From a bacterium (GTDB taxonomy: Bacteria; Gemmatimonadota; Glassbacteria; GWA2-58-10): a stretch of DNA of 64,000 nucleotides. The notes under the pieces are model-generated. The model saw nothing but the letters and a program-made list of their open reading frames with translations, made no database searches and was not told where the DNA came from. A program made the position numbers and the translations under genes. The stretch lies in contig JAJFUG010000073.1 of assembly GCA_021372515.1 (NCBI GenBank), positions 25,796 to 89,795 of the forward strand, written 5' to 3'. Below are positions 3,096 through 40,193 of this stretch, in pieces; the stretch's first letter is position 1, and every line of letters starts with the position of its first letter.

Positions 3096-6000
3096 ATGTT
3101 ATTCAAAGCCCCCCTAACCGGCCTGGGCCTGCTGCTTGTCCTGATCGCCTGCAGTTTCTCGCTCCTTAGCGCCCAGGATGAGTGGGGCCAGTTACAGGAG
3201 TTCGAGGACGGCGACCTGTCGCGCTGGAGCGTCACCGGCGGCGCGCTGGCCCTGGACAGTGTCTACGCCACCGAGCGCAAACACGACCTGCGGGTGGAGT
3301 TCCAGGCCGGGGGCGTGCTGAGTGTCGAGCTGGGCGGCCTCTGGCGCATGGAACAGATAATCCGCGAGAAAGCGGGCGATGAGGGAGGCGGCGGCTGGAA
3401 AATCCAGGAGGCGATCTTTGTCGACCTGTACAGTCCGGTCCCGCTCAGCCTGCGCCTCACTTTCCGCGACAGCCTGGGCGGCAGTTGGAGCACCCTGCGC
3501 ACATTGAGCCAGGGCCTCAACCACGTTCAGTACCGGCGCGAGCAGCTGGCCGGGGTGGACTGGCTGGCCCTGCGGCGGGTGGAGTTCAGCCCCGCGGCCG
3601 CAGCCACGCTCTACCTGGACCACCTCCGCACCTGGGAGCACCAGCCCGAGCTGGACAGCCGCGGACGGATGGACATAGTCTACTCCGACTCGGTCCGGAC
3701 TCCGCACGTGGCCTGGCAGCGGCCGGATGCGGCGGGCCCCTTGCGCGGGCTGTTCGTGCCGCGCGCTGGCAGCGGCCGGGTGATGGTGGAGTTGATGCAA
3801 CGCTTCGAGCTGGAGCCGACCACTGTCACCTTCGAGCCGTCGCTGGGCCTGCACCGCTGGGCGTTCGGCGATTTCTACGGCACCCGCGCCCTCGAATACG
3901 ACCATGTCACCGACAAGTTCAGTGTCTCCTACACCGCCCTGACCAGCGAGCTGGAGAGCCCCCGCCGGTTCGAGGTGATCGCCTTGCCCAACCTGCGCTC
4001 CTGGGCCGATACGCCGCCCGAGCTGCGTAAGGTCCTGCTCAAGCGCGTGGCCGAGGGCTGCGGCCTGGTTTTGTTCCAGCCCGTGGCCGGTGGGCCGGCC
4101 CCGGACCTGGAGGAGCTTTCGCCTCTGGCCGGACAGACCCGCCTGGAGCTGTACAGCCCGCGCGCCGCGGACCAGCCCGAGGAGCGTCCGGCCGGCCTCG
4201 CTCCCGGCGGCGGCGCCTGGAAAGCCGACGATCCCGCCCACTACATCACGCGCGGCATCCCGCTGGAGCTGATCCCGGCCGCGGACATCCACCACGTGCG
4301 CTACACCGCAAAGCCGGGAGCCAGAGTGCTGATCTCGGCGGCGGACGGCAGCCCGATCCTGGCCGTGGGCAGCTACGGCAAGGGTCGCGTGGCGGTGTTC
4401 GCCTGGGAGGACCAGGGCATGTTCCCCCGCGTGGACCGTCCCCTGGAAGACAAGAACGGCCTGCCGTACTGGGAGTATCTCTACGCCCTGACCGGACGCA
4501 CCCTGCGCTGGGCCGCCGGGCGGGACGGCGCCGGGGGGTTCGGCGGCGTGGTCCTGGGAAAGGTGACAGGGGAGGGCCCGCTCGGGATTACCGGCGCCCT
4601 AACCTGCGCCCCCGGCGACAGCCTGCGCGTGGAAATCCGCGACCAGGAATACCGGGTGCTGGCCGAACGCAGGTTGCCCGCCTCCAGCGGCCCGCTGGAG
4701 CTGGCTTTCCCGGATCTGCCGTTCTGCACTCGGATGGTCGCCAACCTGTGGCTCACGCGCCGCGGCCGGGTGGTGGATTTCGCCTCCGCCGGGTGCAGCT
4801 TTTTCGGCTGGAACCGGATCGCATCCCTGGCCACCGGCCTGGACACCTACGAGCTGGGAGACACTGTCAGCGGGACAGTGCGCCTGGACCCGCACGGCCA
4901 ACCCGCGCGGGTGGCCCTGGAGCTGAGCGACAACCGTGGCCGCACGCTGGCCGTGGACACGCTGAGCCTCGGTGCCGGGCAGCCTGGCACATTCTCTTTG
5001 CCGACCGCGCTCTGTCTGGCCCGCCGGGCCGTGGTCACCGCGCGGGTGCTGGACGGCAACGGCCGGGCCGTGCATTCGTCCCGCGCGGAGCTGTTCATCG
5101 ACCGGCCCACGCCCTGGGATGACTACGAAGTGATGATGTACCGTTTCATGCCCCAGATCACGGCCGGGGAATGGCCGTTCCTGGACCGCTACATGGAGCG
5201 CCTGGGGGTGACCGCCTGGGCCGCCGTGCCGCCGGAGTTCGCTTTCCGCAGCAACCTGGAGCTTCAGGCCGAGACCCGTCTGGACACCGAGGAATCGCAG
5301 GACGGCGCGGGCGAGGTCCCCTACCGCGAGCAGAAAAAGAACTACGTAGCCACCCATGACAAGAAGTATCTCATCCGCCGGTACTGCCTGCACGACCCGT
5401 CCTACCTCAAGGAGCAGAAAGAGATCGTCCAGCGCCAGGTCAAGCAGTTCAAGCGGTTCAGCCCCTTGAGCTACTACTGCTACGAGGAGCCCTCGCTCAC
5501 GCATTACGGCGATGCGTTCGACCTGTGTTTCGGCCCGCACACCCTGGCCGCGTTCCGCGACTGGCTGAAAGGGCAGTACGGCTCGCTGGCGGCGCTCAAC
5601 GCCCAGTGGGGCGCCGCATTCACCTCCTGGGACGCCGTGACGCCGGATGACACCCCCGGAGCCCAGGCGCGCGGCAATTTCTCCAGTTGGTCCGACCACC
5701 GTATTTTCATGGAGAAGAGCTACGCCGACAACTACGCCTACGTCCGCCGCATGGTGCGCGAGATCGACCCCGAGGGCCGGGTGATGATGACCGGCACCCA
5801 GCGCACGGTGGCACAGAACGGCTACGACTACTACCTGCTCGACCAGACCATCGACCACACCCAGCCCTACGGCGAGCCGGAGCGCCACAAGGCGTTCATG
5901 CGCGCGGGGGGCAAGATCACCGGCTGCACGGGTTACGGCGTGTCGGGTGTCAAGCTGGACTACGAGCTCTGGGGCCGCCTGTTCGCCGGGCACACCGCCG

Positions 6001-29798: not shown

Positions 29799-30572
29799 TT
29801 ACTTCGTTATCTCCTGCAGGTATCTTTCGATACGGTCACTGTTAGTTCCAAGACTTGAAAACTGTTTATCGCAAACATCGCTGAAACGAGCCAGCACCTT
29901 CCTGTTGATACATTCCTGATCCTCGAAAACGGCCATACTGCGAAACGGAAGTTGCCATTTTTCAAACTGGAGCATAGAAATAGTAGCATCTCGCGCTTTA
30001 TCGTCACCTGGCACGGCAAATACAAAAAGCGGACGCTCCATACCATTAATTTTACAATCTACACTATACATACCCTGTGTATCGTGTATAGGATCGTGCC
30101 AATCGAAAACTCTGCGGCTCTCCGGAATTTTATTAGTCATAAACGCACGAAAATCTTCCATAAATGTTGATCGTACGCGTTCTTTTAAAAGATAGGAGAT
30201 ATCGGTGATTTTCAACAATGCCTGAGTGAAAGAATAAAGCGCATTACCATATTGATCTTCCTGAATGGCAAGTACTAATTCACCATCTCGATCTTCAACT
30301 TTAAATACGGATAATGCATTGCTGATGATCTTTTGCCTGGTTCCTTTTAGAATGTCTTTCTCATCAATATCATACGTGAGGTGCATATAGGTATGTCCTT
30401 CGTCAGACAAAATCCAACTCGCATTATCTCTTTTGAGAGTAATTGCCAGATGGTCTCCGTCTTCAAACATAAAAGGAGTGAATACTCTAAAACGAGCCTC
30501 ACCCTCCTGCTCCAGGCGAATCTGCTCGCATACTCTATTGCGAAAATCTTGTCTAATTGTTTCGGTATTCAT
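29799..30572 (-). CDS. uncharacterised protein B of islet operon (257 aa; possible PD-(D/E)xK-like motif VPGDD...FEK in C-terminal half)
   Basis: Its ATG lies immediately after the TAG stop of the upstream gene, preceded by GAGGAGG. Composition is AT-rich. No confident family assignment. Confidence 0.55.
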   Translation of the reverse strand: MNTETIRQDFRNRVCEQIRLEQEGEARFRVFTPFMFEDGDHLAITLKRDNASWILSDEGHTYMHLTYDIDEKDILKGTRQKIISNALSVFKVEDRDGELVLAIQEDQYGNALYSFTQALLKITDISYLLKERVRSTFMEDFRAFMTNKIPESRRVFDWHDPIHDTQGMYSVDCKINGMERPLFVFAVPGDDKARDATISMLQFEKWQLPFRSMAVFEDQECINRKVLARFSDVCDKQFSSLGTNSDRIERYLQEITK

Positions 30573-31055
30573 CTATACCTCCTCAAACAAATTCTTTTGA
30601 GGATTTCTTGGAAGGTCAAAATTGCAATCGACAAATAAACATTTTACTGCTGAAGTGAAGTCTGAATATCGTTGTGTTGGCTCAGCATAGGTATCTTCTC
30701 TCGCTCCTAATTCTTGATACCGTTCTGTTGCTGAATGGATATGATAATCATAGAATGTGTCGGACTCTATTCCATTTGTGTGCTCGTGACTTTTCCCGTT
30801 GTATCGTCTCAAACGAAATATCTGATTGCTACCTGCTGGACAATGCGCAAGAATGATTGAGAAATCAAGTGCGTTAAAACTGTTTTGCCTCAAGATAAGA
30901 CGAAATTGATTCCCGTTCTCTCCAAAAAAATCAAATTCTTGTTCCTTGTGACCTCGCTTCTCGCGTAGCTTCATTTTATTTCGGTAATCACTCCCAAGGA
31001 CTTTTTTTTCTGAAATCAATTCTGTAATCTCGGTATCAGAGTATTTTGCAGCCAT
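30573..31055 (-). CDS. uncharacterised protein A of islet operon (160 aa; His-rich segment KSHEHTNG...YDYHIHSATE, possible Rx4-6H HEPN-like motif)
   Basis: The RBS GGAGGAG lies 10 nt upstream of ATG 31055. It is translationally coupled to protein B. Confidence 0.55.
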   Translation of the reverse strand: MAAKYSDTEITELISEKKVLGSDYRNKMKLREKRGHKEQEFDFFGENGNQFRLILRQNSFNALDFSIILAHCPAGSNQIFRLRRYNGKSHEHTNGIESDTFYDYHIHSATERYQELGAREDTYAEPTQRYSDFTSAVKCLFVDCNFDLPRNPQKNLFEEV

Positions 31056-31111
31056 TGTGATTTACTCCTCCAAGAATCACAGTATGTTTGGTTTAGAATT
31101 CTTGAGCCTTT

Positions 31112-33808: not shown

Positions 33809-33844
33809 AGGGATAATCGCGCCCCTGAGGTTCATGCGGGGCTT

Positions 33845-34054
33845 TCACCCCCGGCGCACGACCTCGTAGCCGTGCTGGATCAGCCAGTGATGGAACTCGT
33901 AGGTGCTGTGGATACACGCGCTCTGGCAGATCGAGCGGACTTGGTCGTAGCCTGCCGAACCCGCGGCCTGCTGGTCAAGAAGGACCTGCACCGGGCACTG
34001 GATGTCCTTGCAGTACTCCCGGCGCTGGTAGTCGATAAAACCCTCGATTGGCAT
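33845..34054 (-). CDS. small Cys-rich protein (69 aa, Cx4C...Cx3C)
   Basis: It has a strong SD (AAGGAG 7 nt upstream of ATG 34054) and GC-rich coding composition. Function unknown. Confidence 0.55.
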   Translation of the reverse strand: MPIEGFIDYQRREYCKDIQCPVQVLLDQQAAGSAGYDQVRSICQSACIHSTYEFHHWLIQHGYEVVRRG

Positions 34055-34314
34055 GTTGGCGGCTCCTTACGGTTGAACGTCGCCGGACTGCGATTGCCGC
34101 ATTCCGGCAGCGGGTGTTTCAGTCTTGCGCAGCTAAAAGATAGACCCACGCGCCTGGACAGTCAACAGGCATGCCGCCGGGTCGTGCTGTCTTCCGGTAG
34201 CCCCGCAAATGAATTCCTCACCATACGCCAAACCCCGGCTCACTATCCGGAGCTATGTTTATGCATCAGGCTGGATTACGTGTATTCAGACGCCACTGAA
34301 ACCCGGAGGACGGT

Positions 34315-36105
34315 GTGAAACTGATCGATATCCGCGGCGCCCTGGACCCGCGCGGCACCAACCGCGTGCGTGCCATCCTCGGCTCTCGTCTGGAGTCCAT
34401 TCTGGCCGTCTCCCGGCTCAACGACATCTACACCGGCCTCGACCTGAGCGCGCCGGAGCGCAGCTTTTTCCGCAGCAGCCTGGAGTTCATGGGCGTGGAT
34501 TACGACATCTCGCCCGAGGACCTGGAAAAAATCCCGGCTGCCGGCCCCCTGCTGGTGGTGGCCAACCACCCGTTCGGTGGGATCGAGGGCCTGGTGCTGG
34601 GCGACATTCTCACCCGTCGACGCCAGGACACCAAACTCCTGGGCAATTACCTTCTGCAGCGCATCCCGGAGCTGGGGCCCTACATCATCCCGGTGGACCC
34701 GTTCGGCGGGAGCGAGGCGGCGCGCAGCAACATCCGCGGGCTCAAGGCCTCGATCCGTCACCTGATCTCGGGCGGCGTGCTGGGGGCTTTCCCGGCCGGT
34801 GAGGTGGCCCACCTGGCCCTGAGCCGCCGTCAGAGCGGCGAGCGGGTCTGGAGCCAGCATATCGGCGCTCTGGTGCGGCATAGCCAGGCCACGGTGACGC
34901 CGGTCTATTTCCCGGGACGGAACAGCGCCCTGTTCAATCTTCTTGGCCTGCTGGACCCACGCCTTCGCACCGCGATGCTGCCGCGCGAATTGGTCAACAA
35001 GCGCAACCGCCGCCTGAGCGTGCTGGTGGGCCGTCCCATTCCCTGGAGCCGCCTGGAGCAGTTCGAGAGCGACCGTGAGCTGGCCGATTACCTGCGCCTG
35101 AGCACCCTGATCCTGGGCAACCGCGTACCGGCCCGGCCCAAGCGCGTGCACGGGTTCCGTTTCGCCCGCACCGAGCGTCCGGTGGCCACGGCCCGTCCCG
35201 CCGAGGCCATCGCCGCCGAGCTGGCCGCCCTTCCGTCCGACTCTTTCCTGGCCGAGGACAGTGAGTTCGCGGTCTACGCGGTTCAGCGGGAGCAGGCCCC
35301 GGCGCTGATCGAGGAACTGGGCCGTCTGCGCGAGATCACTTTCCGCCAGATCGGCGAGGGCACCGGCAAAAGTTCCGACCTGGACCGTTTCGACAATCAC
35401 TACATCCACCTGGTGCTCTGGCACAAGGCTGCCGCCGAGGTGGCCGGGGCCTACCGCCTGGGCCTGGCCGACCGCCTGATCGCCAGACAGGGCCGCGCCG
35501 GGCTGTACAGCGGCACCCTGTTCCGTTTCGGACCCGAGTTCCTGTCGCGCCTGGACAATGCCATTGAGCTGGGCCGCTCGTTCATCCGGCGCGAGTACCA
35601 GCGCCACCCCTCCAGCCTGGCCCTTCTGTGGCGCGGAATCGGCGAGCTTGTCTGCCGCGAGCCCTGGCGCTGCGTGCTGTTCGGCCCGGTCAGTATCAGC
35701 CGCGACTACCATGCAGTGTCGCGCCGGCTGATCGTGCAGTTCCTGAGCCGTAACCGTCTGGACCCCGATCTGTCGCGCCTGGTGCGGCCGCGCAAGCCGT
35801 TCCGCATCGCGGCCGGGGCCCTGGAGGGCGGCAGCCTGCGGGACATCGAGGATGTCTCCATGCTGGTCTCGGAGCTTGAGGCGGACGGCAAGGGTGTGCC
35901 GGTGCTGATAAAGCACTACCTGCGGCTGAACGCCTCACTGCTCAGTTTCAACGTGGATCGCAAGTTCTCGGACGTGGTGGACGGGTTGATCCGGGTGGAC
36001 CTGCGCACCACCGACCCGCGTATCCTGTCGCGGTTCATGGGGCGGCACGGTTTCGCCCGCTTCGCCGAGCACCACGGGCTGGAGCGGACGCGGCGCGAGG
36101 TCTGA
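34315..36105 (+). CDS. olsF: bifunctional acyltransferase, OlsF-like (N-terminal PlsC-type O-acyltransferase + C-terminal OlsB/GNAT-like N-acyltransferase) for aminolipid synthesis
   Basis: GTG start 34315 with GGAGGA upstream. The N-terminal region has the acyltransferase motif VVANHPFGGIEG. The C-terminal roughly 300 aa have an OlsB/hemolysin-like GNAT fold. Length is 596 aa, as for Serratia OlsF. Confidence 0.6.
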   Translation: MKLIDIRGALDPRGTNRVRAILGSRLESILAVSRLNDIYTGLDLSAPERSFFRSSLEFMGVDYDISPEDLEKIPAAGPLLVVANHPFGGIEGLVLGDILTRRRQDTKLLGNYLLQRIPELGPYIIPVDPFGGSEAARSNIRGLKASIRHLISGGVLGAFPAGEVAHLALSRRQSGERVWSQHIGALVRHSQATVTPVYFPGRNSALFNLLGLLDPRLRTAMLPRELVNKRNRRLSVLVGRPIPWSRLEQFESDRELADYLRLSTLILGNRVPARPKRVHGFRFARTERPVATARPAEAIAAELAALPSDSFLAEDSEFAVYAVQREQAPALIEELGRLREITFRQIGEGTGKSSDLDRFDNHYIHLVLWHKAAAEVAGAYRLGLADRLIARQGRAGLYSGTLFRFGPEFLSRLDNAIELGRSFIRREYQRHPSSLALLWRGIGELVCREPWRCVLFGPVSISRDYHAVSRRLIVQFLSRNRLDPDLSRLVRPRKPFRIAAGALEGGSLRDIEDVSMLVSELEADGKGVPVLIKHYLRLNASLLSFNVDRKFSDVVDGLIRVDLRTTDPRILSRFMGRHGFARFAEHHGLERTRREV

Positions 36106-36133
36106 TTACTGAACATGGAGTATTGACTCGAAA

Positions 36134-36165
36134 GGCCCCGCCGCTTTTCCGGCAGGGCCTTTGTG
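36134..36165 (+). terminator. putative terminator after the olsF-like gene
   Basis: The hairpin GGCCCCGCCG-cttttc-CGGCAGGGCC is followed by TTTGTG. Confidence 0.45.
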
Positions 36166-36281
36166 TCGGGTGGAATTCATTTGTTTCTTGACAGCAGTCG
36201 CATTCCGGGGGAAAATGGTCCCAGGGCTTGCAGTACGGCCCACCCACAACGGACGACCGAACTCTTCCCTGGAGGCCTTTG

Positions 36282-36734
36282 ATGCGCTGGTCTTATCTTG
36301 TCGTGGCCCTGCTGACGCTGCTGGTTCTGGGCTGGGCGATGCGGATGGGTGGGGAAATAATGATGGCCGTGGACCTGCCGAGCCTGGCGCTGGTGCTTGC
36401 GCCCGCTCTCCTGATGTCGCTCGCCACCCACGGTCCGGCTGAAATGGCGGGTTGTTTCGCAGTGGCCTTCAAAAAAGAGGGAGTCGAGCCGGCGGCGCTG
36501 GAGAAAGGGATTCTGTTTTTCAAGACCCTGCAGGCCTATTTCACAATCAGCGCCGTAATATCTTTCCTTATGGGTCTTATTATTCTTCTGGCTTCGGCGG
36601 AGGATTACGCGACAATCTGCCCCGGACTGGCCGTGTCGATTATTTCGGTGCTTTATGCCTACCTTCTGGCCCTGCTGGTCACGGTGCCGTTCAGGACCGC
36701 GCTCGAAAAGAAAAAGATCGAGTTGGGCCGCTGA
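36282..36734 (+). CDS. hypothetical integral membrane protein (about 150 aa, 4 TM)
   Basis: RBS GGAGG lies 6 nt upstream of ATG 36282. It has hydrophobic helices throughout. No family assigned. Confidence 0.5.
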   Translation: MRWSYLVVALLTLLVLGWAMRMGGEIMMAVDLPSLALVLAPALLMSLATHGPAEMAGCFAVAFKKEGVEPAALEKGILFFKTLQAYFTISAVISFLMGLIILLASAEDYATICPGLAVSIISVLYAYLLALLVTVPFRTALEKKKIELGR

Positions 36735-36860
36735 GTGTGGAATGAAAAATCTGTCTTGTATCTTGAGATTAATGTGAGCCTCGATGGAAGAAAGGTTCGC
36801 TTTACTGCGTTGTATTTTAAGAGGTTGGAATGAGCATGGTGGGAAATATGCTAATAAATC

Positions 36861-36889
36861 TTGACAAACAAGAGTAAAGGAATTATAAA
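36861..36889 (+). promoter_or_regulatory. consensus sigma70 promoter (TTGACA, 17 nt, TATAAA) inside the islet
   Basis: The -35 TTGACA is at 36861-36866 and the -10 TATAAA at 36884-36889, with an exact 17-bp spacer. Confidence 0.5.
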
Positions 36890-36895
36890 TTAAAC

Positions 36896-36954
36896 AATCC
36901 ACGTATGTGGAGGTGGATGGCTTTGCCATCGGAGCCCGCAAGGGCTCTTTTTTT
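36896..36954 (+). ncRNA. candidate small RNA (about 58 nt, three hairpins, intrinsic terminator GAGCCC-GCAA-GGGCTC + T7)
   Basis: A promoter lies immediately upstream. The hairpins are CCACGTATGTGG, ATGGCTTTGCCAT and the terminator stem at 36932-36947 with T7 at 36948-36954. No ORF is present. It converges on the 3' end of the DUF3800-like gene. Confidence 0.3.
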
Positions 36955-37825
36955 ATCCTATAAATTTTTTCCCAGAACCAGCTATCCTGCCGTTTGATTG
37001 ATAATATTTATTCTGCAATATCGCTACTATCTGTCTTGAAAATACTCCGAGCTCTCTCTCAAATAAATTTTGCTCAGACAAAATTTCACACCAGCTCGGG
37101 TGGGCAAGAAGATCAACTAATTGAAGACCTGCGATGTTATTGCTTTTCTGCTTGACTTTTAATTGTGAGCTTGTGAGGTGTTGTGTAAGATAACCTTTTT
37201 CAAGGTAATGAGTTCCTTTGTTGTAGAGATTGTTAAAGGCTTCTTTTAATTTCTTGTCCTCTTTTCCTCCTCTGGATTCTGCAAGAACATCCCCAGTAGC
37301 TCCTGTACTTCTTAGAAAGAAAATATATCTTTCAAGCATAACTTCCAAACAATAGTGGTAAGGATGATATATCCAAGTGGAATATGTTTCTTTATGTGCT
37401 TTCTTATCTATGCATATGGTTATAACTTTGAAATCCCACCTTCTCAAGCAATTAAGTAGTTCGGAATTGAATTGCTTTTCCGTTTCTGGATCAGAAAGCA
37501 CTGAGAATACATCTCGTTTGTTTACAATGTCTTTGCGATGCAAGATCACTGGATCATCAGGGTGCTGTCCGAAGAATCTTTTCTTTAGGGACTCCATTTC
37601 TGGAAATACGACATCATCAATGTGGTCTAATTTGAAAATGACACCAGTCAAACTTAAGAATCTATGAATGGGATTTGAGGAGCTTCCCAGGTCTGGATTG
37701 CCGACTTCATCGATATACATTCTGTATTTGGCTGCTGAATTCATGATGGTATCAATTCCACTGATGTTTGCTAATATAGAGAACCAAATTATGTCGTTCA
37801 TGTTTTGCTGTAAAACTGAATTCAT
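36953..37825 (-). CDS. DUF3800-like protein (N-terminal MYIDEVGNP motif)
   Basis: It is AT-rich. The motif RMYIDEVG sits near the N-terminus as in DUF3800 family members. The start is ambiguous (ATG 37825 or ATG 37720). It lies 2 nt downstream of the pyk stop. Confidence 0.55.
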   Translation of the reverse strand: MNSVLQQNMNDIIWFSILANISGIDTIMNSAAKYRMYIDEVGNPDLGSSSNPIHRFLSLTGVIFKLDHIDDVVFPEMESLKKRFFGQHPDDPVILHRKDIVNKRDVFSVLSDPETEKQFNSELLNCLRRWDFKVITICIDKKAHKETYSTWIYHPYHYCLEVMLERYIFFLRSTGATGDVLAESRGGKEDKKLKEAFNNLYNKGTHYLEKGYLTQHLTSSQLKVKQKSNNIAGLQLVDLLAHPSWCEILSEQNLFERELGVFSRQIVAILQNKYYQSNGRIAGSGKKFIG

Positions 37826-37827
37826 TG

Positions 37828-38847
37828 CTAAATATAAGCTTTCTCCGCTTCCTTTGTCACCGCGGCGGCAACCCGCACCACCTCGACTGGATAGCGGCCG
37901 CGGGCGGTCTCGCCGGTGAACAGCAGCCAGCCCGTGCCGTCCAGCACCGCGTTGTAGATATCGCTCACCTCGGCCCGGGTGGGCACAGGGTTAACGCACA
38001 TCGATTCGAGCATCTGGGTCGAGGTGATCGACTCCAAGCCCAGGGCGGCGGCCCGGCGCAGCACGTGTTTCTGGGCCGCGGGCACCCGCTCCAGACCGAT
38101 CTCGGCCCCCAGGTCGCCTCGCGCCACCAGGACACCGTCGGCTGCTTCCAGTATCCCCTCCAGGTTGTCTAAGGCCTCGGCGCGCTCGACCTTGGCGATC
38201 AGGCGCAGACTTGCTCCGCGTGCGGCCAGGTAATCCCGTACCTCCCGCACCGAGCCGGCATCCCGCACGAACGAAAGCGCCAGGCTGTCGAACCCGAGGG
38301 CGGCCAGGCAGTCCAGGTCGGCGCGATCCTTGGCGCTCAAGGCAGGGAGCCTGAGGTCGAGCCCCGGGGCGTTCACCCCCTTGCGCCCCTCCAGCGCCCC
38401 GCCGCGGACAATCCGGCAGCGCGCCTCCACGCCCGGTTCCAGTACTTCCAGCTCCACCGCCCCGTCGTTCAGCAGCACCCGTGCGCCAGGCACGAGCGCC
38501 CGGACCAGCTCCGGACAGTCGAGCGTTATCCGTCCGGCGCCGAGCGGCGCTTCGCCCGCGCAGAGGACAGTTTCCCGTCCTGCCTCCAGCCGCACGCCGC
38601 CCTCCGGGGCCGTGGCCGTGCGTGGTCGTGGCCCCTGAAGGTCGGCCAGCAGGCGGACTCGCTGTCCGCTGGCTTTCTCGGCTTGTCTGAGGGGAACGAG
38701 CAGGCGTTCGCATTCGCCGGGGGTAAGATGGGAGAAATTGACCCGCACCCCGCGCATTCCGGACTCGATCATGGCCTCAAGAATGGGCTGGGAGGCGCAG
38801 GACGGTCCCAGGGTGCACATTATTCCGGTGCGCAGCGGTGCGGTCAT
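37828..38847 (-). CDS. pyk: pyruvate kinase lacking the C-terminal (allosteric) domain
   Basis: A and B domains are present (MTAPLRTGIMCTLGP..., NFSHLTPGE, MVARGDLGAEIG). The protein ends at ...VVRVAAAVTKEAEKAYI* after 339 aa, where canonical PKs continue with a roughly 130-aa C domain. The ATG overlaps the pfk stop (ATGA). Confidence 0.8.
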   Translation of the reverse strand: MTAPLRTGIMCTLGPSCASQPILEAMIESGMRGVRVNFSHLTPGECERLLVPLRQAEKASGQRVRLLADLQGPRPRTATAPEGGVRLEAGRETVLCAGEAPLGAGRITLDCPELVRALVPGARVLLNDGAVELEVLEPGVEARCRIVRGGALEGRKGVNAPGLDLRLPALSAKDRADLDCLAALGFDSLALSFVRDAGSVREVRDYLAARGASLRLIAKVERAEALDNLEGILEAADGVLVARGDLGAEIGLERVPAAQKHVLRRAAALGLESITSTQMLESMCVNPVPTRAEVSDIYNAVLDGTGWLLFTGETARGRYPVEVVRVAAAVTKEAEKAYI

Positions 38848-40193
38848 CCGGCAGCCGCGCCGATCCGGCCCGGCTGCCCGGTGGCCGAGAGCACGCTGTT
38901 CCAGAGGCTGCTCTCCAGGGCCACCTTTTTCTTGCCGTGGGTGACCTGGCTTAATGGCACGTGGGTCATCACATTGTGCCACAGGCCGACCACCATGTCG
39001 GTCTTGCCGGCCATGGCGGCGTGCACCGCGGCGCGGCCCAGGTCGTTGCAGAACAGAGCGTCCCCGGCATCCGCCGGCACGGAGCGCACCACGTAACTCG
39101 GGTCGATGTACTTGAGGTTCACCTCGTGGCCGCACCCGGCGAAATGCGCCTTGATCCTGTCGCGCAGGAACGTGCCCACATCCCGGGACATCTGGCTGTA
39201 GGCGATGTTGCCGCTCTTGTCGCGCATGATCTCGCCGCTGTCGACCAGGTCGAGTCCCGCGCCCTCGGCGGCCACGATTACGGCGTGGTTGCGCCGCACC
39301 AGGCGTTCCTCCAGCAGCTCGAACAGGCCGCCCGGTCCCTCCAGGCTGAACGGGCACTCGGGGATCAGGCAGAAATTGACCACCATGCTGGCCAGCGTGG
39401 CGTGGCAGGCGATGAACCCGCTGTCGCGTCCCATCAGCTTGACCAGGCCCACGCCGTTGGGCGCTCCCTCGGCCTCGTTGTGCGCGCCCAGGAGTACCTG
39501 CCGCGCGGCCTGGACCGCGGTGTCGAACCCGAAAGTCTTGTAGACGAAAAGGATATCGTTGTCGATGGTCTTTGGCACGCCGATCACGGACAGCTCGTAG
39601 CCCTGGCGCAGGGCCTCCTCGGCCACGCCGTGCGCCCCTTTCAGGGTGCCGTCCCCGCCGATCGTGAACAGGAGGTTCACTTTCCAGCGGCGGCAGGCCT
39701 CCACGATCAGCGCCGGGTCGACCGCGCCGCGCGAGGAGCCGAGGAACGAGCCGCCGTTGCGCTGAACGCCCTCCACCCGCTGGGGGGTGAGCTCCAGCGG
39801 GGTCTGGGCCGAGGCCATGTCGAACCCGGCGTAGCCGTAACGCACCCCCAGCACCCGTCGCACCCCGTAGCCGTGGTACAGCTCCAGGAAAATGGACTGG
39901 ATGACGTTGTTGATCCCCGGGCAGAGTCCGCCGCAGGTGACAATGGCCGCCCGGGTGCTCTGCGGGTCGAAATAGATACGCCGCCGCGGCCCGGCGCACT
40001 CGAAAGAGGCCGGTTCCCCGGGGCCGTTCTTCCGGGGCAGGTAGACATCCAACGGGATACGCCGGTCATCCGACTTGTAGTCCGGCAGCCCGTCATCCGG
40101 ACGGGTCGAGAGCCCGAGCGGTGAATCGAGCTGCGGAGCGCCCAGGCTCAGCACCTCCAGGTCTTTCCTCTCCGGCTGGAAATCTATTGCCAT
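38844..40193 (-). CDS. pfk: 6-phosphofructokinase
   Basis: It has PFK motifs GGDGT, PKTIDNDI and MGRDSGFIA. The 449-aa gene overlaps the glgP-like stop by 10 bp. Confidence 0.85.
   Translation of the reverse strand: MAIDFQPERKDLEVLSLGAPQLDSPLGLSTRPDDGLPDYKSDDRRIPLDVYLPRKNGPGEPASFECAGPRRRIYFDPQSTRAAIVTCGGLCPGINNVIQSIFLELYHGYGVRRVLGVRYGYAGFDMASAQTPLELTPQRVEGVQRNGGSFLGSSRGAVDPALIVEACRRWKVNLLFTIGGDGTLKGAHGVAEEALRQGYELSVIGVPKTIDNDILFVYKTFGFDTAVQAARQVLLGAHNEAEGAPNGVGLVKLMGRDSGFIACHATLASMVVNFCLIPECPFSLEGPGGLFELLEERLVRRNHAVIVAAEGAGLDLVDSGEIMRDKSGNIAYSQMSRDVGTFLRDRIKAHFAGCGHEVNLKYIDPSYVVRSVPADAGDALFCNDLGRAAVHAAMAGKTDMVVGLWHNVMTHVPLSQVTHGKKKVALESSLWNSVLSATGQPGRIGAAAG

Follow-up and report, generated by a model that had tools for sequence, protein, structure and literature searches.

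We analysed a 64,000-nt window (the whole stretch of contig JAJFUG010000073.1 under study, from the Gemmatimonadota assembly GCA_021372515.1) and found that positions 36896-36954 of its forward strand very probably hold a genuine gene for a small RNA (sRNA) of about 58 nt, the partner of a DUF3800 protein encoded tail to tail with it. Judged by sequence comparison, the element is a conserved RNA gene that lies beside every sampled member of one DUF3800 subfamily, in several phyla, and it is more than a lone coincidence of a promoter with hairpins. An earlier note on this DNA had described an independent, noncoding unit of this length with its own sigma70 promoter and intrinsic terminator inside an AT-rich islet, and the comparative evidence for such a unit is strong.

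The promoter lies exactly where the earlier note had placed it, at 36861-36889: a -35 box TTGACA (36861-36866, +) is followed, after a 17-nt spacer, by a -10 box TATAAA (36884-36889, +), both read directly from the sequence. The 5' end of the sRNA, at 36896, lies 6 nt past TATAAA. From there, the RNA (36896-36954, +) consists of 5'-AAUCC, hairpin 1, a GGUG linker, hairpin 2, a terminator hairpin and U7. Hairpin 1 (36898-36911, +; UCCAC-GUAU-GUGGA) was placed from the predicted fold together with pair counts, while hairpin 2 (36916-36930, +) and the terminator hairpin (36931-36948, +) were placed from the predicted fold. The claim of three stem-loops held up well, as the 60 nt starting at 36896 folded with a minimum free energy of -28.1 kcal/mol (z = -4.0), a value matched by none of 200 shuffles. 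A consensus terminator scan called GGAGCCC-GCAA-GGGCUCU followed by U7 (36948-36954) as a terminator, the whole of which spans 36931-36954. The overlap of 2 nt with the 3' end of the convergent DUF3800 gene was likewise confirmed: the T-run of the terminator runs into the DUF3800 stop codon (36953-36955).

The promoter was not listed by our promoter scan, because the scan demands a T at the last -10 position. When islets of 37% GC were simulated, an 11/12 sigma70 match on either strand arose in ~4% of them, and T6 preceded by a perfect GC hairpin with a stem of 6 bp or more arose in ~0.15%. What decides that the element is no product of chance is its conservation elsewhere. A consensus scan also picked out a promoter-like TCCACA-18-TATAAT on the minus strand (36882-36911), within the 5' region of the sRNA and pointing left. 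Its -35 falls in the variable part of hairpin 1, and it is not kept in other loci.

The association with DUF3800 was examined from both the protein and the RNA side. The protein has at least 2662 homologues, the best of which are 55-62% identical, ~256 aa long and distributed over many phyla. Eleven distinct homologues were picked by protein alone (P0003, 4, 8, 16, 33, 39, 44, 77, 79, 85 and 95), from taxa including Geothermobacter ehrlichii (locus L135, GCA_008124615.1) and metagenome-assembled genomes (MAGs) of Sedimentisphaerales, Phycisphaeraceae, Desulfobacca and Nitrospiraceae. In all 11, the element was found just past the DUF3800 stop codon, on the opposite strand. In Geothermobacter ehrlichii, it corresponds to L135 3777-3834, on contig VNIB01000001.1 at around 158.4-159.3 kb. 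A relative with 30% identity on viral contigs (L144/L145) also has the element (40.9 bits), so that the total co-occurrence from the protein side amounts to 12 of 12 sampled loci.

From the RNA side, a search with the exact core GGAGGTGGATGG-N4-7-CCATCG yielded at least 120 metagenome stretches and 6 viral stretches. About 45 of the core-pattern matches listed were chance occurrences in GC-rich coding DNA and were discarded. A blastn search of a plasmid collection with the consensus sRNA returned no match. Counting the window and the loci already fetched, we obtained 81 distinct full elements, and a convergent DUF3800 gene or a remnant of one was present at 55 of the 74 that could be tested. 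The distance from the end of the U-run to the DUF3800 stop codon was -2 to +9 nt in 54 of 57 loci, and the overlap with the DUF3800 coding region was at most 2 nt in all loci but one. A recurrent genomic link to DUF3800 genes, here 12/12 protein-first and 55/74 RNA-first, is the operational mark of the RNA class described by Weinberg et al. 2017.

Alignment of the 81 copies gave the consensus 5'-AAUCC-RN-loop-NY-GGA-GGUG-GAUGGC-loop(3-7)-GCCAUC-G-(GC hairpin)-U4-8, in which the 5' AAUCC, GGAGGUGGAUGG and CCAUCG are near-invariant. In the window, the near-invariant core GGAGGUGGAUGGC-loop-GCCAUCG occupies 36909-36931 (+); it comprises the stem of hairpin 2, an AUG and a Shine-Dalgarno (SD)-like GGAGGUG. 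Between loci with proteins of 55-62% identity, some 25 positions show practically no variation. The core is unchanged in 11 of the 13 loci that were not chosen by RNA (the window and 12 protein-selected loci); the exceptions are L138, where CCAUUG replaces CCAUCG and yields a G·U pair, and the distant L144, with GGAGGGAGAUGGG. Among ten protein-selected loci, the RNA had an identity of 0.83, the gene (nt) one of 0.66 and the protein one of 0.63. Conservation falls on the helix bases and the linker and leaves the loops and inner pairs free, a pattern typical of a protein-recognition site.

The promoter is conserved together with the RNA. In 66 of 80 copies, 6 nt separate the end of the best -10 box from AATCC; in 52 of 81, TTGAC begins 34-36 nt upstream of AATCC; and the best promoter score reaches at least 8/12 in 74 of 80 copies, versus ~6% of random positions. 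Because the promoter sits at this fixed distance, the transcript is predicted to start at the invariant AAUCC. The element thus combines a fixed-distance promoter with an intrinsic terminator on the same strand, as befits an independent sigma70 sRNA gene.

The structure is also supported by covariation, a further trait of the class as defined in 2017. Across the alignment, 96.2% of cells were paired on the named structure and double-sided changes were seen in 9 of 17 pairs, with the observed values reached by none of 500 shuffles. In hairpin 1, the outer UCC/GGA pairs never change, and covariation is seen at the two inner pairs (pair 8-15, GC:37, AU:30, GU:3; pair 9-14, GC:56, CG:6, AU:3, UA:2). 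All 6 stem pairs of the terminator covary across homologues. The count of 48 G·U cells against 9 A·C cells identifies the folded strand as the one opposite to DUF3800, and the U-run is always found on that strand. A covariance model (R1) gave a single match in the 64-kb window, at 36896-36952, with 72.9 bits and E = 1.5e-19.

Both genes lie in an AT-rich islet of 1.1 kb (36738-37837), with 37% GC in a genome of ~65% GC, which we delimited from the composition profile and an alignment to contig L001. A contig scan with exact DUF3800 peptide patterns, which were too strict, had found no relatives; L001, from a related Gemmatimonadales MAG, was found by a contig scan with an OlsF-like neighbour protein. 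At 86.5-88% nucleotide identity, L001 aligns to window positions 33840-36737 and 37838-40055, and only ~23 nt separate the two aligned blocks in L001, which therefore carries the empty site. It follows that 36738-37837 is an insertion that brought the sRNA and the DUF3800 gene together, and that the hairpins are not a native terminator of core genes. With the occurrences described above, the comparison shows the sRNA and DUF3800 genes to have been transferred together, as a module of ~1 kb, into unrelated sites.

The islet sits between a MotA/ExbB-like gene (+, stop at 36734) and a pyruvate-kinase-like gene (-). The insertion replaced ~17 nt, including the final two codons and the stop of the kinase-like gene, whose C-terminus changed from EKALA-stop in L001 (2950-2990) to EKAYI-stop in the window (37828-37860). 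The junctions thus represent a small replacement, not a target-site duplication, and we found no convincing flanking direct or inverted repeats, tRNA genes or integrase at the islet. The left 125 nt of the islet (36738-36862) showed no similarity to the corresponding region of other loci. The ~120 nt of AT-rich DNA between the left border of the islet and the sRNA promoter (36738-36860) contain neither an open reading frame (ORF) nor an Rfam match, and this stretch may be a relic of the donor context. At the right junction, the insertion created a tentative promoter-like GTGACA-18-TATATT (37831-37860, -; 10/12 match, seen in the consensus scan only), which straddles the junction and points into the DUF3800 gene.

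Elsewhere, the module occupies several contexts, defence loci among them. The order hsdR-DUF3800-sRNA-hsdS was found within type I restriction-modification (R-M) operons at L005, L140, L141-143 and L147, and in such R-M-embedded loci there is a 4-nt overlap between the hsdR stop and the DUF3800 start. Other copies follow hsdM-hsdS (L135), belong to an SNF2/DUF1156 locus (L138) or lie beside Fic and MazG-helicase genes (L003). Embedding in R-M operons is the minority arrangement, with hsdR adjacent at 4 of 45 testable loci, and the window copy is not in an R-M operon. At L141 and L147, the sRNA 5' end is only ~60-70 nt from hsdS; given so short a gap, hsdS probably shares a transcript that runs across the sRNA gene. 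Where the module lies in an operon, transcription of DUF3800 probably has to continue through the sRNA gene. Locus L003 also carries an Rfam DUF3800-V RNA (3380-3476, -; 63.5 bits), ~45 nt upstream of the element and on the same strand, so that two distinct DUF3800-linked RNAs stand in tandem; the element's own promoter is weak there.

DUF3800 is missing from some loci, such as L021, L063 and L118. At the latter two, ~46 nt lie between the end of hsdR and the sRNA, and at L021 475 nt. Since L118 retains a few nucleotides of the DUF3800 3' end, the gene appears to have been deleted, leaving an orphan sRNA between hsdR and hsdS. Copies that have lost DUF3800 had intact terminators in 15 of 30 cases, versus 31 of 35 with DUF3800 (P = 0.0009), and also had poorer promoters (P = 0.008). 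From this decay of orphan copies, the sRNA is seemingly maintained only together with the protein.

The DUF3800 gene itself (36953-37744, -) gave a Pfam DUF3800 match with E = 6e-13 and encodes a protein with an RNase H fold. The longest ORF reaches 37825, but a length of ~256 aa, as in the homologues, points to the ATG at 37744 as the probable start. The AlphaFold2 model was confident (predicted local distance difference test, pLDDT, 92.6), and a fold search with it pointed to RNase HII/HIII/PIWI-like proteins, with Argonaute PIWI domains among the closest predicted folds. Residues D12, E13, D113, E156, Q208 and D211 are invariant among homologues, so that the protein combines the fold and the conserved acidic residues of the RNase H-like superfamily. 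Because of these invariant residues, the protein is probably an active nuclease. A PDB sequence search with the protein gave no meaningful match, and PADLOC and NCBIfam returned no assignment for it.

We then compared the element with known RNA families. Eleven mutually dissimilar RNA motifs, DUF3800-I to -XI, have been linked to DUF3800 genes; several carry terminators, several phyla are represented, and no functional hypothesis was offered by the authors (PMC5737381). Like them, the element is a conserved structured noncoding RNA (ncRNA) tightly linked to DUF3800 in several phyla. At 58 nt it is shorter than they are, its make-up of two small hairpins and a terminator is simpler, and its geometry is fixed and convergent, whereas theirs was reported to be variable. 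It is unrelated in sequence and structure to DUF3800-V, although the two are adjacent in L003. An Rfam match, which the earlier note had suggested looking for, did not materialise. With gathering thresholds, nothing matched at the element and no DUF3800 family matched anywhere in the window. At E <= 10 around it (36500-37300), no DUF3800 motif appeared among the hits, which were noise, including Atu_C8 (16.7 bits), a match to the terminator. In 23 other loci (L003, L005, L006 and 20 more), Rfam 15 again gave no match to the element. The sRNA family is thus absent from Rfam 15, which holds at least DUF3800-I (RF02969), -V (RF02964) and -IX (RF02968), so that the comparison covers at least motifs I, V and IX of the eleven. 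Our literature search turned up no paper after that of 2017 giving a function to DUF3800 or to its RNA motifs, and none on a function of the DUF3800-I, drum and skipping-rope RNAs. A tRNA-like element was considered and rejected: ARAGORN found no gene in the window, Rfam gave no tRNA match, and the loops, of 3-7 nt, are neither T nor anticodon loops. The tRNA-Ile(GAU) genes in L074 and L088 do match the sRNA core exactly; the match covers the 3' half of the anticodon stem, the AGGUG variable loop and a T arm reading GAUGG-UUCGAUU-CCAUC, and is probably a coincidence rather than mimicry of a tRNA arm.

Several two-part systems resemble the module in part. In the type I toxin-antitoxin (TA) pairs txpA/RatA and bsrG/SR4 of Bacillus subtilis, the antitoxin RNA is convergent with the toxin gene and overlaps its 3' end. 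The element is likewise a small RNA with its own promoter and terminator, convergent with a predicted overlap of the transcripts' 3' ends, in a compact mobile module; the geometry fits, with an overlap with the DUF3800 ORF of only -2 to 0 nt. However, the toxin of type I systems is a small hydrophobic peptide, in contrast to the ~256-aa soluble RNase H-fold protein found here, and the element is invariant beyond the needs of antisense pairing, with an ORF overlap of at most 2 nt at all loci bar one. In type III systems such as ToxIN, a tandem-repeat antitoxin RNA lies upstream of the toxin gene, separated from it by a terminator, and the abundant RNA neutralises the nuclease. The likeness lies in a two-part module of RNA and nuclease in mobile or defence contexts, with the same proposed logic. 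The type III RNA, however, is upstream and co-directional, while here a single unit is downstream and convergent; Tandem Repeats Finder detected no tandem repeats over 36600-37900, and the protein is RNase H-like rather than ToxN/Kid-like. The suggestion that the element is an antitoxin RNA stays plausible, but neither the classical type I nor the classical type III architecture fits it.

Type VII retrons comprise a reverse transcriptase (RT), an ncRNA and a DUF3800 effector or fusion partner (PMC7736814). As in the module, a DUF3800 protein is coupled to a structured nucleic acid in a defence-type setting; the retron RNA is msr/msd, to which the 58-nt element is unrelated. No RT gene was seen to adjoin the module in the window, nor was there one among the genes called in the protein-selected loci. 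DUF3800 proteins have also been described as RNase H-like and as accessories of Cas12a2/a3. Finally, the anticodon nuclease gene prrC is latent and embedded in a type Ic hsd (EcoprrI) locus, and PrrC is not known to have an RNA partner. The likeness is that of a nuclease gene inside a type I R-M operon; prrC belongs to an unrelated protein family, and most copies of the module are outside R-M operons.

We favour sequence-specific recognition of the RNA by the DUF3800 protein, because a cis-antisense RNA needs no such invariance over ~25 positions. The invariant helix and linker bases would form a sequence-specific binding site for the RNase H/PIWI-fold protein, and the abundantly transcribed sRNA would keep the nuclease in check or license it. 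Retron effectors are held in check by RT and multicopy single-stranded DNA (RT-msDNA), and by analogy with these and with type III TA systems, neutralising or licensing a nuclease would be the most likely role of the RNA. The relationship between sRNA and protein would then be that of an RNA antitoxin (type III-like) or of a cofactor, within a mobile defence or addiction module, and antisense pairing with the read-through DUF3800 mRNA, unavoidable in operon contexts, would add a secondary layer of control. We assign a probability of roughly 0.55 to the whole of this explanation, that is, an sRNA gene with a dedicated DUF3800 partner and a predicted antitoxin-like or cofactor role. For a protein-binding, antitoxin-like mechanism as such, the odds seem to us nearly even, if slightly adverse.

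A more far-reaching version is speculative, and we would sooner bet against it than for it: the pair may be a new type of minimal immune or addiction module made of two parts, in which the ~58-nt RNA would be a specific ligand of the nuclease, either an antitoxin or a fixed guide. As an antitoxin, the sRNA would decay on infection and thereby unleash the nuclease; as a guide, its invariant GGAGGUG would direct cleavage to the anti-SD tail of 16S rRNA. If this were true, the 11 DUF3800 RNA motifs would serve as alternative ligands in systems of this kind.

Several points weigh against the explanation we favour. The fixed convergent geometry is what a cis-antisense mechanism predicts, and we infer protein binding from the conservation pattern alone. 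Hairpin 2 is invariant, which leaves it without covariation support and makes it uninformative in this respect, and in the RNA-first set its invariance is partly imposed by the search pattern. On a MAFFT alignment, hairpin 1 was missed by RNAalifold, which did recover hairpins 2 and 3. The frequencies from the RNA side (such as 55/74) are biased, because they come from the matches listed for an exact pattern, and the test for decay of orphan copies is confounded by lineage structure and a crude terminator rule. As no PADLOC model matches the protein, a role in defence is drawn from genomic context.

The alternative that survives best is a purely cis-antisense function, which we regard as possible though rather unlikely. 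The sRNA would pair with the 3' end of the read-through DUF3800 transcript and act through duplex cleavage or transcriptional interference, thereby setting DUF3800 levels and, in hsdR-DUF3800-hsdS operons, those of the downstream hsdS as well. The strict tail-to-tail geometry, with the U-run ending within the narrow range given above in 54 of 57 loci, is in line with this, as is the layout, which is like that of the 3'-overlapping antitoxins RatA/txpA and SR4/bsrG. Moreover, the GC hairpin has no following U-tract in the sense of the gene, so that read-through is expected, and the probable co-transcription of hsdS across the sRNA gene at L141 and L147 points the same way. However, antisense pairing is perfect whatever the sequence, which leaves the ~25 invariant positions unexplained, and the coding-region overlap is minimal at all loci but one. 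Of the suggestion that the layout recalls cis-antisense regulatory or antitoxin RNAs, the conserved tail-to-tail geometry therefore stands, while the invariance goes beyond what a pure cis-antisense RNA needs.

A guide or decoy function is considerably less probable. Here, GGAGGUG, a perfect SD sequence of 7 nt, would pair with the anti-SD tail of 16S rRNA (CACCUCC) and recruit the nuclease, or the RNA would titrate 30S subunits as a mimic of an SD-AUG region. This would explain the invariance across phyla by a target that is itself invariant; GGAGGUG is followed by AUG in 92 of 93 elements, and Argonaute PIWI domains, to which the predicted fold is close, cut the strand that is paired to a guide. 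On the other hand, GGA is paired in hairpin 1 and GAUGG in hairpin 2, the relative with 30% identity has GGAGGGA, with just 5 nt complementary to the anti-SD, and the SD-AUG spacing is only 3 nt. In the 256-aa protein, no guide-binding (MID-like) domain was identified, with no search aimed at one.

It is very improbable that there is no RNA gene at all, the hairpins being a 3' untranslated region or bidirectional terminator of DUF3800 or a DNA site (for recombination or an operator) and the promoter a chance match. The reverse strand does fold well too (-25.7 kcal/mol, z = -3.8), the scan picked out hairpin 1 and the UUGUUUAAUUU after it as a terminator-like feature of the minus strand, and the 11/12 promoter match is of a kind met in ~4% of simulated islets. 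Against this, the -35 and -10 boxes are kept at a fixed distance in dozens of unrelated loci, GC-rich ones included; the U-runs always lie opposite the DUF3800 strand; the count of 48 G·U against 9 A·C cells favours the sRNA strand; and compensatory changes keep the pairing, which is not required of sites acting at the DNA level.

Least credible of all, and rejected, is a micropeptide translated from the SD-like GGAGG and the conserved AUG: GGAGGUGG-AUG is invariant and the first residues would often be M-A-x-A-I, but the 3-7 nt loop of hairpin 2 shifts the frame, the predicted peptides are unrelated in sequence and vary in length from 2 to more than 50 aa, an in-frame stop ahead of the end of the transcript is missing from 73 of 86 copies, only 3 nt separate the SD from the AUG, and the AUG is inside a 6-bp GC-rich stem. 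No reading frame on the RNA strand is conserved from this sole conserved AUG, the frames being unrelated in length and sequence across homologues, as expected from the claim that the transcript holds no ORF. The variation in loop length shifts the gene-strand frame too in the two loci compared by eye (the window and L003).

Two further observations concern the surroundings of the islet. The kinase-like gene is part of a 723-aa ORF (37828-40193, -), in which the pyruvate-kinase barrel covers only residues 390-708 and the usual C-terminal domain is lacking; a 449-aa ORF in another frame ends at 38844, within the same region, and the 723-aa ORF probably represents two genes. The loss of the C-terminal domain of the kinase is not due to the islet, since the alignment with L001 covers this gene end too. 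Window positions 29800-31100 form a second AT-rich islet (~39% GC), with, on the minus strand, a gene for a DUF1828-domain protein (29799-30572) and a 160-aa ORF that received no assignment (30573-31055); it looks like another horizontally acquired cassette.

DUF3800 proteins are widespread, have an RNase H fold and occur in retrons, beside Cas12a2/a3 and in defence islands. The element adds a further class to the known association of DUF3800 with RNA, which has comprised at least 11 unrelated structured RNAs since 2017. For annotation, it represents an uncatalogued sRNA family in many environmental phyla, of which the window holds a textbook copy on a freshly inserted islet. The system is also tractable, with an RNA of 58 nt, clear transcription signals, an invariant core of ~25 nt, one 256-aa partner and a fixed geometry, and its carriers include at least one cultured organism, Geothermobacter ehrlichii. 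It could add a new RNA-protein architecture to those of defence or toxin-antitoxin systems, and finding out if the nuclease is inhibited, activated or guided by the RNA could account for the DUF3800-RNA association as a whole.

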